Shown one piece after another: positions 24,770 through 27,566 of a stretch of 39,548 nucleotides of DNA (its first letter is position 1; each line of letters opens with the position of its first letter). The stretch comes from a virus (Duplodnaviria > Heunggongvirae > Uroviricota > Caudoviricetes). The position numbers and the translations under genes are program-made. The notes under the pieces are model-generated. The model worked only from the letters and a program-made list of their open reading frames with translations. It did not search any database and was not told the DNA's origin. The stretch is taken from IMG/VR virus record IMGVR_UViG_2519899835_000008; one strand, given 5' to 3'.

Positions 24770-26433
24770 TACCAGCCCCCCCGATCAAATTCATGATATG
24801 CCTCATCGTCATCACGATAACCGCCCTCCATTGCCCGCGACCGCTCCGGTAGCGCCTGACAGGCTGATTCATCCAGGATGAAACCCTCCATGTATGACGC
24901 CCGGTTTGCCATACAGAGTGCCACGGCAAAATCACCATGGCGGCGGGCGTTCGCAGCCGTTGCGTTCTGGTCCTTCGTGCGCCCCTTGTCGATTTGCGGG
25001 ATACCATTCACCACCTTCACATGGCGCAAATCATCAAGCGTGGTCTGATGGCGGGCGACGAGGATATTCTGATCTTCAAACTCGGCTTTCAGTTTTGGCA
25101 TCCACTCGCCGTACCACTTCGGCGACAACATCACGCAGTCGATGATGTCCGGGCCAAAGGCCAGCAGTGCGGCCTCTGCCAGATAGCCGCCGTTACCGGT
25201 GGCGTCGAACGCCGCACCGACCAGCGCCGGAACGCGGGTCAGGATGTACATCATCACCTGTTCCTGCTGGGCATACGGCAGGTTGCGCAGCTCCACGCGA
25301 AACACCTCGCGCTTTGCCAGGAGTTCGGTGATTTCCAGCAGCACAAAGCAGGACAGGTCACCGGTGCGGGCAAAGTCTTCCCCGAAGCTGAAGCGGGAAC
25401 GGGGATTTAATTTCTCTGTAAGCGGTTTTAAATGTTCTTCACACCAGGTTAAAACTTCCGATTCACGCAGCCATGCGGCACGGCTGATGAAGTCGTCCGG
25501 GGCTTCAAACGTCAGAATCGGGATGTCACGAATCATCGCCATTTCAATAAGCGCGTGAGGAATATAGGCACCGCCGGATTTTTTCGGGATACAGCCGTAT
25601 TCCTCGTCGGCATCCTCACGGGTCGGGGCGTTTTTGTAGAGATCATCACGCCATTTCTGCTCGCTTTCCGGTGACCATTCCTGATCGGTGACGTAACAGA
25701 TACGACGGTACAGCCCGTCCGCAATGGCATCATCCAGGGTTATGCGGTGGACGCTGTAATCCTTGCGCCCCTCGCGGGCTTCCTGAATGTACTGATTAAA
25801 CAGATTATCGACGCCGTTATGCGTGGAAATAATGCGCACGCGTGCGCCCCACATGGTAAGCGCCATTGCCGCCTTGAGAAGCTCATCCAGTGACTCGTGG
25901 AACGCGGCTTCATCAATCACCACATCCCCCTGAAGACCGCGCAGGTTTGACGGACGGGAAGACAATGCCTGAATTTTGAATCCACTGTTCGGAAAGCGGA
26001 TCATGTAGGTCAGAATTTCTTCTTTTTTATCCCGATCCCAGAATGTCTGCTCATACACATCAGCATCTGCCAGCTGGTTAAAGGCACGGGAGAACAGCGC
26101 GCAGGCAGAAATATATTCCAGCGCCATCTCCTGTTTTGACCCCACATAAAACACATTACGGCCACCACGACGCTTAGGCTTTGCGGCGGTAATGACGTTA
26201 CGCCCGGCTTCCGCCCAGGTAAGCCCGGTGCGTCGGGATTTCTCCGCGATGCAGACCTGACTTTCATCTGCAAACCAGCGGGCCTGATAATCCAGAAACA
26301 CCGGCATATCACCGGGCAAATCAAGGCTGTCCGGCACATCCACGCCCAGCAGGGCTTTTTCACCGGACAGATCAATTTTGCGGGGAGGTGTCATTTGTAT
26401 CAGTGAAGGAGACTTTTCTTTGGCTTTGTTCAT
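24769..26433 (-). CDS. Terminase large subunit
   Basis: 554-aa ORF upstream of portal; size and position match Mu gp28. Confidence 0.75.
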   Translation of the reverse strand: MNKAKEKSPSLIQMTPPRKIDLSGEKALLGVDVPDSLDLPGDMPVFLDYQARWFADESQVCIAEKSRRTGLTWAEAGRNVITAAKPKRRGGRNVFYVGSKQEMALEYISACALFSRAFNQLADADVYEQTFWDRDKKEEILTYMIRFPNSGFKIQALSSRPSNLRGLQGDVVIDEAAFHESLDELLKAAMALTMWGARVRIISTHNGVDNLFNQYIQEAREGRKDYSVHRITLDDAIADGLYRRICYVTDQEWSPESEQKWRDDLYKNAPTREDADEEYGCIPKKSGGAYIPHALIEMAMIRDIPILTFEAPDDFISRAAWLRESEVLTWCEEHLKPLTEKLNPRSRFSFGEDFARTGDLSCFVLLEITELLAKREVFRVELRNLPYAQQEQVMMYILTRVPALVGAAFDATGNGGYLAEAALLAFGPDIIDCVMLSPKWYGEWMPKLKAEFEDQNILVARHQTTLDDLRHVKVVNGIPQIDKGRTKDQNATAANARRHGDFAVALCMANRASYMEGFILDESACQALPERSRAMEGGYRDDDEAYHEFDRGGW

Positions 26434-26681
26434 CAGGCTTTACCTGTCAGAATGCTTTTGATTCGGAACTCAAGCTCTTCAGTCATCACGTCCACGCCAC
26501 TCAACTCATCAGTGACAGCCCCTGCCAGCAGCGAATGCAGTTGTTCCAGGGATATTTCCCCGGCAATGCTGAGTTCAGTCAACTCACGACACGCTTTTAT
26601 GGTTTCAGGAGGTAACTGTGTTGCAAGACTGAATGCCTTCTGATGAGCACTGCTCATCAGTGAGCGGTTATCTGTTACCAC
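26433..26681 (-). CDS. Hypothetical protein whose C-terminus is paralogous to the terminase small subunit C-terminus
   Basis: GTG start with AGGAGG ribosome-binding site 6 nt upstream; C-terminus AVTDELSGVDVMTEELEFRIKSILTGKA parallels AVTDELRGVDGMSEQIEFRIRQMLLGKA of the upstream gene. Confidence 0.55.
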   Translation of the reverse strand: MVTDNRSLMSSAHQKAFSLATQLPPETIKACRELTELSIAGEISLEQLHSLLAGAVTDELSGVDVMTEELEFRIKSILTGKA

Positions 26682-26691
26682 GATTCACCTC

Positions 26692-27273
26692 CTACGCCTT
26701 ACCAAGCAGCATCTGCCTGATACGGAATTCTATCTGCTCGCTCATGCCATCCACGCCGCGCAACTCGTCGGTGACGGCGTTCGCCATCTCTTCAGCAAAT
26801 GCGGCCCGGATTTCTTTTTCACGCTTAATGCTGCGCTCGGCGGCACTTTCCGCACGCTGTGCCGACAGGAGGATGTCCTTAATAAGGCGCATATCCACAT
26901 CGCTGTCGCTGTTCAGGGATTCGGTGGCGGCACGCAGACGGCGGTACATCAGGGCACGGGACATCTCCAGAATCAGTGCCGTGGTTTCACCGGTCGGCTT
27001 ATCCCCCAGTTCGGCCATCATGGCTTTTGTCTGCTCGCGTAAATCACGCAGATTACGGGCAATCAGCTCATTACGGGAGGCTTCCCGGCTGATGGCCGCC
27101 GGTGAAAGCTGCTGCTCTTCCGGCAGGCCTGCCTCACGGATCAGACGGTTGATTTCCTCGCGGATCTGGACCTGCGTCAGGCGTTTTTCACGCAGCATTT
27201 CCAGCAGCGGCTTACGGATGCTGTCGGGGAGCAAATCCACCTTGCGTACACGGCCACGCGTCGGCTTATCCAT
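26692..27273 (-). CDS. Terminase small subunit (Mu gp27-like)
   Basis: 193-aa ORF with basic N-terminus and helical body, directly upstream of the large subunit. Confidence 0.65.
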   Translation of the reverse strand: MDKPTRGRVRKVDLLPDSIRKPLLEMLREKRLTQVQIREEINRLIREAGLPEEQQLSPAAISREASRNELIARNLRDLREQTKAMMAELGDKPTGETTALILEMSRALMYRRLRAATESLNSDSDVDMRLIKDILLSAQRAESAAERSIKREKEIRAAFAEEMANAVTDELRGVDGMSEQIEFRIRQMLLGKA

Positions 27274-27275
27274 CG

Positions 27276-27566
27276 TTACCCCCTTGCGCGTGGTTTCTTC
27301 ACACCCGGAACAGTGGCACGACCTTCCGCCACATCCTGACCCCGGCCGGTCAGTTCAGCGATGAAATAACCGTTAACAAGCGTGCGCTTACGCACCAGTC
27401 CCTGCTCAGCAAGCCAGGCAATGTGGGTGTGAACGGTGTCGCGGGACACGCGGTGGCCGTAATCATCCAGGCAGTCCTGAAGCACGGATTCGCCCAGTTC
27501 GCCGTTGTAATCCGCCAGCGACCGCAGAATGACAAGACGCTGATCTTCAGTAATGAAATCACTCAT
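27276..27566 (-). CDS. Hypothetical protein, Mu gp26-like
   Basis: 96-aa ORF in syntenic position between lysis and terminase genes. Confidence 0.45.
   Translation of the reverse strand: MSDFITEDQRLVILRSLADYNGELGESVLQDCLDDYGHRVSRDTVHTHIAWLAEQGLVRKRTLVNGYFIAELTGRGQDVAEGRATVPGVKKPRARG

Follow-up and report, generated by a model that had tools for sequence, protein, structure and literature searches.

The question raised by this locus is why a short gene stands between the two terminase genes of a Mu-like prophage, and where that gene came from. The DNA analysed, referred to here as the window (39,548 nucleotides (nt); IMG/VR virus record IMGVR_UViG_2519899835_000008), carries on its minus strand a complete Mu-like prophage of E. 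coli. In it an open reading frame (ORF) of 82 codons, which we call orf82, lies between gp27, the gene for the Mu-type small terminase subunit (TerS), and the gene for the large terminase subunit (TerL). It had been proposed in a first reading of the window (the original prediction) that the C-terminus of orf82 duplicates that of the small subunit, and that the ORF could be a partial duplication or a modulator or competitor of terminase assembly. The results below point to an accessory small protein that has been joined in frame to the end of a second gp27 allele. We think it fairly likely that orf82 is a chimeric and dispensable accessory gene that is probably translated and whose gp27-like tail is largely passive.

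The C-terminal tail shared by orf82 and gp27

The original prediction had read the locus correctly in three respects. The gene order is small terminase, ORF, large terminase, as confirmed by matches to PF11985, phrog_426 and phrog_2; the ribosome-binding site of orf82 is strong, with GGAGG placed 6 nt from the GTG start; and the paralogy of the two C-termini holds at the protein and at the DNA level. Residues 52-82 of orf82 align by BLASTP with residues 163-193 of gp27 without a gap, with 20 of 31 residues identical and 26 of 31 positive (E 1e-12), and the two tail copies are 73.8% identical at the DNA level over 61 nt (E 2e-7). The window holds two copies of this segment only. The phrog_30922 profile, which as shown below covers orf82, matches gp27 at residues 162-193 (E 6e-8), and when the orf82 family was compared with the gp27 family by hhalign, positions 56-82 were aligned with 169-195 (E 8.5e-4) and no other region was aligned. 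We place the start of the orf82 tail at residue 56; the BLASTP match begins a little earlier, at residue 52 (26528). Judged by these alignments, the similarity between the tails is far above chance.

An alignment of 25 gp27 tails showed that the motif AG[LM][ST]x6I[KR]xxILG[IK]A is conserved among distant gp27 proteins. The orf82 tail has retained the hydrophobic character of the terminal helix at most positions, and every orf82 allele has V in place of a G and T in place of the L of 'ILG', both residues being without variation among the 25 gp27 tails. Beyond the tail nothing in orf82 resembles gp27. There was no match of orf82 to Pfam at E <= 0.1, so it does not match PF11985 (DUF3486) as a whole protein; it does not reach phrog_426 in the PHROG search; and the gp27-type N-terminal region (K..LP..IR, helix-turn-helix (HTH)-like helices and long central helices) was not found in it by hhalign. 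On these comparisons orf82 is not a member of the gp27 family.

The core of orf82 belongs to a separate family

The whole of orf82 matches phrog_30922 over its full length (E 7.6e-57). An exhaustive HMMER search of 1.84 billion representatives returned the orf82 family and orf67 (P0012) only. P0012 is a protein of 67 amino acids (aa) that has the N-terminal part of orf82 without the gp27-like tail, and its gene occupies the same slot between gp27 and TerL, followed by 120 nt and then by a TerL with a different N-terminus (L009). A Citrobacter braakii prophage (L015 3590-3787) has in this slot a 65-aa ORF whose stop overlaps the TerL ATG, a profile search recovered about 15 Salmonella proteins of 65 aa that are again encoded between gp27 and TerL, and another Salmonella lineage (L050) has a 69-aa version, orf69, followed by a reverse-strand 72-aa ORF. 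By hhalign the orf82 family aligns with the 65-aa family of Salmonella and Citrobacter over residues 4-51 (E 1.8e-5), and orf67 and orf69 match phrog_30922 across its core only. The profile-profile comparison of the 65-aa family with gp27, on the other hand, gave no similarity (E 0.13). We refer to this family as orfX. Its tail-less versions of 65-69 aa (L009, L015, L045-47 and L050 in the gp27/TerL slot) are found in Salmonella, Citrobacter and other Escherichia-type Mu-like prophages, and the gp27 tail is carried only by the E. coli 82-aa form. The orfX cores of E. coli and of Salmonella/Citrobacter are about 25-30% identical with a fixed length.

Since the core of orf82 matches a tail-less family and gp27 matches the tail only, core and tail are separate modules. 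Residues 1-55 form an independent small-protein module, orfX, probably of three helices, residues 56-82 are a gp27 tail, and orf82 belongs, on its profile matches, to the orfX/phrog_30922 family. Pfam, NCBIfam and PDB sequence searches for distant homologues of the core gave nothing meaningful. The ORF had already been catalogued and annotated, because phrog_30922 and the RefSeq 'hypothetical protein' entries WP_073527718.1 and WP_000179787.1 are the same family. These entries give no function, and the chimeric make-up and the link to the gp27 tail are seemingly unrecorded in them.

A by-eye likeness (EK.I...E / A.AV.E) had led us to consider the whole of orfX as an old gp27 C-terminal duplicate, to which the profile-profile value just given lends no support. 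Two tail-less orfX proteins, P0019 and the L050 orf69, weakly match a stretch of phrog_220 (positions 916-974; E about 1e-3 and 6e-3), a 'minor head protein and DNA pilot' family of 1338 positions. These matches may be due to chance, or they may hint at an orfX module inside larger head proteins. The reverse-strand 72-aa ORF of L050 (3429-3647; Salmonella enterica GCA_020707715.1), which lies between orf69 and TerL in the late packaging operon, has no PHROG match and looks like a moron in the opposite orientation.

orf82 is confined to a minority lineage

The distribution of orf82 was examined in 5,426 complete E. coli genomes. A 501-nt probe across orf82 had matches in 230 of them and the whole region was present in 25, at 92.8-100% identity; orf82 is annotated as a coding sequence in all 25. 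A 145-nt probe made of the tail and the TerL start separated the genomes sharply, 25 matching at 90% or more and 184 at about 76-78%, with none between. The approximately 184 genomes of the second group carry a sister prophage from which orf82 is absent. In these 184 genomes, and in two records of Shiga toxin (Stx) phages with an inserted Mu-like phage, gp27 runs directly into TerL (TGATG), and what the ORF-less relatives lack is exactly 259 nt, the ORF unit, in surrounding DNA that is 94% identical. Phage Mu also lacks orf82 and has 7 nt between gp27 and gp28. Of 24 distantly related gp27 loci in other genera, 18 have a gp27 stop that overlaps or abuts the TerL start, and a scan of IMG/VR returned only further copies of the same prophage type. 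Because orf82 is absent from about 184 sister-prophage genomes, from Mu and from most distant relatives, it is dispensable.

Within the lineage that has it, the ORF is kept. In nine distinct DNA alleles, diverged by up to about 11-12%, the start codon is ATG or GTG and neither the frame nor the ribosome-binding site has been lost. Both indel variants of the protein database (P0002 and P0003) are in frame, and two singleton metagenome variants (P0010 and P0011) are frameshifted. With 25 complete E. coli genomes and further assemblies carrying it intact, the ORF is not absent or frame-disrupted in all relatives, the outcome that would have spoken against the first reading. orf82 is an accessory feature of a minority lineage, and its frame is not disrupted there. 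The database entries P0008 and P0009 are 49-aa truncated versions.

The gp27/TerL junction is a mosaic hot spot

The junction from about codon 178 of gp27 to about codon 17 of TerL (26386-26745) exists in at least seven layouts (L001-L009, L015, L045-L051) with flanks that are 94-99% identical. These are a direct TGATG overlap (layout A, which is ORF-less); orf82 (layout B, that of the window); a ribosome-binding site with a 9-codon mini-ORF that overlaps the TerL ATG and nothing more of the ORF (layout C); orf67 and a 120-nt spacer; orf69 and a reverse-strand ORF; a 25-nt spacer; and orfX-65 with an ATGA overlap. In layouts D and E orfX is 120-400 nt away from TerL and uncoupled from it. A four-way alignment of E. 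coli layouts showed conserved flanks up to about gp27 codon 178 and from about TerL codon 17, with a variable cassette between. Residues 1-177 of gp27 (window 26746-27273) are an identical protein in all E. coli layouts examined, with no nonsynonymous divergence (dN = 0) at a synonymous divergence (dS) of up to 0.25, and in these layouts the amino-acid variation of gp27 is confined to the last 15 or so residues. On the other side of the junction the TerL N-termini vary in sequence and length among layouts and are conserved from '..PRKIDL' on. The gp27 tail allele of layout A ends in '...LESRIKGILLGKA', and that of layouts B, C and D in '...IEFRIRQMLLGKA', followed by TAG-GGAGGTG.

In the window and in L004-L009, L015, L045-L048, L050 and L053-L057, orfX follows gp27, precedes TerL and has a GAGG-type ribosome-binding site of its own. 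The context of the ribosome-binding site, GGAGGTGAAT, is the same in all relatives with layout B or D, and Salmonella and Citrobacter have the related site GAGGTGG. The cassettes do not follow their flanks. The layout-B prophage of E. coli strain 48 (L005) has flanks near-identical to those of the layout-A prophage of E2865 (L002), with nt differences of 0.6% in the gp27 body and 1.4% in TerL, and it differs from other layout-B prophages by 3-5%. This incongruence between cassette type and flanks indicates that cassettes move between backbones by homologous recombination.

An independent and smaller case of a junction with a duplicated gp27 end is found in Vibrio sp. 10N.261.46.E11 (L044 3550-3742). 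Here the gp27/TerL slot is filled by an unrelated, hydrophobic ORF of 58 aa (3564-3740). A 13-nt direct repeat of the gp27 end, TTGGGGATTGCAT, flanks this ORF at 3550 and 3726, and like gp27 the ORF ends in ...LGIA* on the TerL ATG. Two other observations concern the same slot. In Vibrio paucivorans and Enterovibrio nigricans (L038 and L039, 3582-3788) it holds another unrelated ORF of 68 aa whose start overlaps the gp27 stop (ATAATG), and E. coli CI5 (NZ_CP011018.1, L003) has two Mu-like prophages, the one at 4.294 Mb of layout C and the other, at 4.854 Mb (near 4854333), with an A-like junction.

Origin of the chimera

If the tail of orf82 were a copy of the resident gp27 end, it should be nearest to that end. 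It is not. At the nt level the orf82 tail is 75-77% identical to layout-A gp27, 60-68% to the resident gp27 and 61-69% to the tails of Salmonella and Citrobacter, and the first 16 codons of the layout-B TerL are A-like rather than D-like. Because the tail is nearer to another allele and residues 1-55 come from a separate family, orf82 appears to be a recombinational gene fusion at a mosaic joint and not an in-place duplication. A single recombination between an orfX-bearing genome on the left and a layout-A-like gp27-TerL junction on the right would account for it. The reading frame of the 3' part of orfX would thereby have been continued into the last 30 or so codons of a second gp27 allele, possibly by a crossover at the short LAxAV / MAxAV similarity, and the tail would have arrived with its native overlap of gp27 stop and TerL start and with an allele-matched TerL N-terminus.

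The alternative that the 3' end of the resident gp27, with or without the 5' end of TerL, was partially duplicated in tandem in place and later diverged is very improbable. Two direct copies of the tail do lie 259 nt apart in one operon, and orf82 residues 8-46 give a weak post hoc score against the TerL N-terminus that only 4 of 2000 shuffles reach. Against it stand the greater nearness of the orf82 tail to another allele than to the resident gp27 and the identity of residues 1-55 as an independent orfX family unrelated to gp27. In addition, the similarity of orf82 5' to TerL 5' DNA is at chance level (reached by 43 of 500 shuffles) and, from the coordinates, the frames are incompatible with a simple 259-nt duplication. 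Of the partial duplication originally suggested, it therefore stands that the tail derives from a gp27 gene; what does not stand is the resident gene as its source, as the tail is closer to another allele, or a gp27 origin for residues 1-55.

The layout-A tail looks like the front of copy 1 joined to the back of copy 2, as a deletion between the repeats would yield. A recent origin of layout A from layout B by such a deletion was considered and rejected, because the layout-A tail and TerL start share no more than about 77% identity with any B allele and there are no intermediates. The deletion would thus not be recent, and the change may have run in either direction.

Translation signals at the locus

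The features of the locus are listed in Table 1. The product of 26692..27273 matches PF11985 (Phage_Mu_Gp27) in Pfam (E 3.1e-33, 116 bits) and phrog_426 ('terminase small subunit') in PHROG (E 8.6e-55).

Table 1. Features of the gp27-orf82-TerL region (window coordinates)
Feature	Position	Strand	Basis
gp27, Mu-type small terminase subunit, 193 aa	26692..27273	-	PF11985 and phrog_426
gp27 C-terminal tail, residues 163-193 and TAG stop; copy 1 of the repeated segment	26692..26787	-	BLASTP, tblastn
orf82, 82 codons, GTG start, between gp27 and TerL	26433..26681	-	ORF reading
Ribosome-binding site of orf82: GGAGGTG (26686-26692) and spacer AATC (26682-26685)	26682..26692	-	Read from sequence
orf82 core, residues 1-55; orfX small-protein module	26517..26681	-	phrog_30922, hhalign
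orf82 tail, residues 56-82 and TGA stop; second copy (copy 2) of the gp27 tail, derived from another gp27 allele	26433..26516	-	Sequence comparison
TerL, large terminase subunit, 554 aa	24769..26433	-	phrog_2 'terminase large subunit', E 5.5e-43
TerL first 16 codons, hypervariable; right-hand edge of the variable cassette	26386..26433	-	Alignment of four E. coli layouts

The GGAGGTG of orf82 overlaps the gp27 stop TAG (26692-26694), and the gap between gp27 and orf82 is 10 nt. orf82 and TerL overlap, the TGA stop of the one and the ATG of the other sharing one A at 26433 (TGATG), and upstream of the TerL ATG there is just a weak AGG as ribosome-binding sequence. The GC content of orf82 is 49%, and 48% at third codon positions (GC3), against 55-59% and 62-69% in its neighbours. 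No promoter-like site was found for orf82; three terminator-like matches near it are not above shuffle expectation and none is at the ends of the ORF; and the region has no Rfam match or known RNA element.

From this arrangement it is likely that orf82 shares the transcript of the late packaging operon, that its translation begins from a strong GGAGG site of its own, and that termination at TGATG hands ribosomes to the TerL start. Since the orf82 stop lies on the TerL start, translation of TerL would be coupled to orf82 and not to gp27. The mini-ORF of layout C fits the view that upstream translation matters.

Selection and predicted structure

Constraint at the protein level was estimated as omega, the ratio of dN to dS. 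In B-type prophages omega is 0 for gp27, with dS up to 0.25, and about 0.08 for TerL. For the whole of orf82 the tree-based value is 0.58 (p = 0.014), for core residues 16-55 it is 0.68 and for the hypervariable residues 2-15 it is 0.61, the last two not significant. The comparison of orfX-65 between Citrobacter and Salmonella gave 0.33 (p = 0.02). Thus, protein-level constraint on orf82 is weak and far below that on gp27 and TerL.

In the AlphaFold2 (AF2) model of orf82 there are helices at residues 5-21, 25-39 and 45-59, a disordered stretch at 60-66 and a helix at 68-79, and in that of gp27 long helices are followed by a break at 172-178 and a terminal helix at 179-189. Both models, which are of low confidence (pLDDT 65 and 54, respectively), agree that the shared segment is a linker and a short terminal helix. 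Fold and PDB searches with orf82 and gp27 found nothing, and nor did Foldseek of the low-confidence orf82 model against viral structures.

What orf82 may do

In the reading that we favour, the product of orf82 would be a small helical protein that displays a TerS-type terminal helix on a flexible linker. Its tail would chiefly be a by-product that was retained with the junction and that keeps the context of the TerL start intact, with at most a weak and non-essential affinity for TerL.

Several points weigh against this reading. Salmonella orfX-65 is coupled to TerL without a gp27 tail, and layouts D and E have spacers. TerL thus needs no gp27 tail in cis, and the argument that the tail was kept only for the junction is not compelling by itself. 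A purely cis role is also at odds with the retention of orfX where it is uncoupled (layouts D and E), with the conservation of its core across genera and with the tail being the best-constrained part: omega of the tail is 0.41 (p = 0.03), the lowest in the ORF. Being best constrained and having kept most of its hydrophobic positions, the tail may have a role at the protein level. There may have been a fusion of D-like and A-like parents, or layout B may be ancestral with later loss, and among the 5,426 E. coli genomes there is no donor allele closer than about 77% to the orf82 tail. Finally, the confidence of both AF2 models is low, and we infer the translation of orf82, its coupling and its protein contacts from the sequence.

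The modulator or competitor put forward in the original prediction would be, by analogy, a captured TerS tail that docks on TerL and there either competes, so that holoenzyme assembly is tuned or delayed, or serves as an adaptor linking gp27 to TerL. We regard this as unlikely. In lambda and P22 the last 22-40 residues of TerS do bind TerL, the TerL-binding domain being the last 30-40 aa of gpNu1 in lambda and the last 22 aa of gp3 in P22, and the variable cassette found here consists of exactly the parts that make contact in lambda, the TerS tail and the TerL N-terminus (PMC9026076). The gp27 tail motif is conserved across distant Mu-like prophages, which suggests that the tail is functionally important in gp27. 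Moreover, the tail has the lowest omega in orf82, a linker and an amphipathic helix are predicted in it as in gp27, and in layout B the tail allele that lies beside TerL matches the allele type of the TerL N-terminus. However, binding of TerL by the TerS tail is documented for lambda and P22 and not for Mu gp27, and PaP3 shows that a TerS tail is not always a TerL binder (PMC7672466). Furthermore, two positions that never vary in the aligned gp27 tails are altered in every orf82 allele, constraint is far below that on gp27 or TerL, and most relatives have no ORF or have orfX without the tail, from which it follows that the tail is not needed for whatever orfX does. It is quite unlikely, too, that the cassette is the subunit-recognition module of Mu-type terminases and orf82 a 'tail-only' TerS mimic. 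In this reading a three-helix protein of the phage itself would bind TerL by a captured C-terminal TerS helix whose allele type matches, and would tune, delay or re-specify assembly or serve as an adaptor for a gp27 with a tail of a different allele type.

The ORF could instead be a leader only, whose translation, ending on the TerL start, sets TerL expression while the peptide is interchangeable filler. This would explain why the frame, the ribosome-binding site and the stop/start overlap are strictly kept under weak amino-acid constraint (0.58), and it agrees with the weak AGG alone before the TerL ATG, with the unrelated 58-aa and 68-aa ORFs that fill the slot in Vibrio and with layout C, which keeps only a ribosome-binding site and a 9-codon mini-ORF ending just past the TerL ATG. 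We hold it to be decidedly unlikely, however. From E. coli to Salmonella and Citrobacter the core of orfX is conserved at a fixed length, and omega is 0.33 between Citrobacter and Salmonella, which exceeds what a pure spacer needs. The distance of 120-400 nt between orfX and TerL in layouts D and E means that orfX persists where a leader role is impossible. That orf82 is an untranslated recombination scar, open by chance, is barely credible. The omega of the core alone is not significantly below 1, the singleton metagenome variants P0010 and P0011 are frameshifted and GC3 is atypical for the operon, but there are nine intact alleles, both indel variants are in frame, a strong ribosome-binding site is conserved together with an ATG or GTG start codon, Salmonella and Citrobacter have homologous ORFs whose length is fixed, and the overall omega has a p of 0.014.

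Comparison with known systems

SaPI Ppi and satellite-encoded TerS proteins redirect or block terminase. Another protein of this kind is Rpp of phage-inducible chromosomal islands (PICIs), a small protein that binds phage TerS (PMC9026076). Rpp and Ppi, small proteins that interfere with TerS-TerL, form the class that orf82 would join if it were a modulator. They differ from it in being satellite-encoded, directed at a helper phage and experimentally tested, whereas orf82 is phage-encoded and lies in its own packaging operon, and the Pfam, NCBIfam and PDB searches revealed no similarity of orf82 to terminase-hijacking proteins. The likeness to the TerS C-termini of lambda and P22 is one of arrangement, for in orf82 and gp27 too the segment is at the extreme C-terminus, is predicted to be a linker and a short helix, and is conserved in the family. 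gp27 (PF11985) itself has no detectable sequence relation to lambda or P22 TerS and no solved structure, and orf82, unlike these proteins, carries the tail segment on a non-TerS core.

Closest among the kinds on record are the accessory ORFs of 34-100 codons described in 'regions of genomic plasticity' of Mu-like phages as moron-like indels (Cazares et al. 2014; PMC4378225). Like orf82, they are present or absent between conserved neighbours, have an atypical base composition and are unclear in function and acquisition; they are mainly in the left arm of Pseudomonas phages, whereas orf82 is between the terminase subunits. Of the hallmarks of a classical moron, orf82 shows presence or absence between adjacent genes and atypical base composition, and it shows no promoter and terminator of its own flanking a single ORF. 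It is also unusual in being fused to a piece of the adjacent core gene.

orf82 is a clean example of phage mosaicism building a new small gene: at a hot spot of plasticity an accessory ORF captured the functional end of the neighbouring core gene in frame, and the translational junction with the gene that follows was kept. The analysis also brings out a small-protein family that had no name before, orfX, whose members recur in the gp27/TerL slot of enterobacterial Mu-like prophages. It shows, too, that the TerS tail and the TerL N-terminus can be exchanged as one cassette, whereas gp27 is otherwise frozen (dN = 0). The series of layouts (no ORF, tail-less orfX, tailed orfX and 9-codon leader) makes the Mu-type TerS-TerL contact directly and cheaply testable. 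If the tail does bind TerL, then orf82 would be a natural competitor peptide, and if orf82 is a TerS mimic, Mu-like phages would have a built-in terminase regulator of a new kind, through which the Mu TerS-TerL interface could be mapped.

Other observations on the region

An ORF of 243 codons on the plus strand (26633-27364) is antisense to all of gp27, and antisense ORFs of 63-75 codons cross orf82. These are probably by-products of the GC-rich codon usage of the coding strand. The TerL of the window has no Pfam or NCBIfam match and is a 'hypothetical protein' in RefSeq E. coli genomes, and the Mu RefSeq record (NC_000929.1 12899-14554) calls gp28 a 'putative portal protein' though gp29 is the portal; the labelling of Mu-type TerL in RefSeq is an annotation gap or error. 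P0032, a 291-aa protein from a Logan contig, is a predicted gp26::gp27 fusion in one assembly. In the window the two genes are 2 nt apart, and this fusion is probably a sequencing indel.

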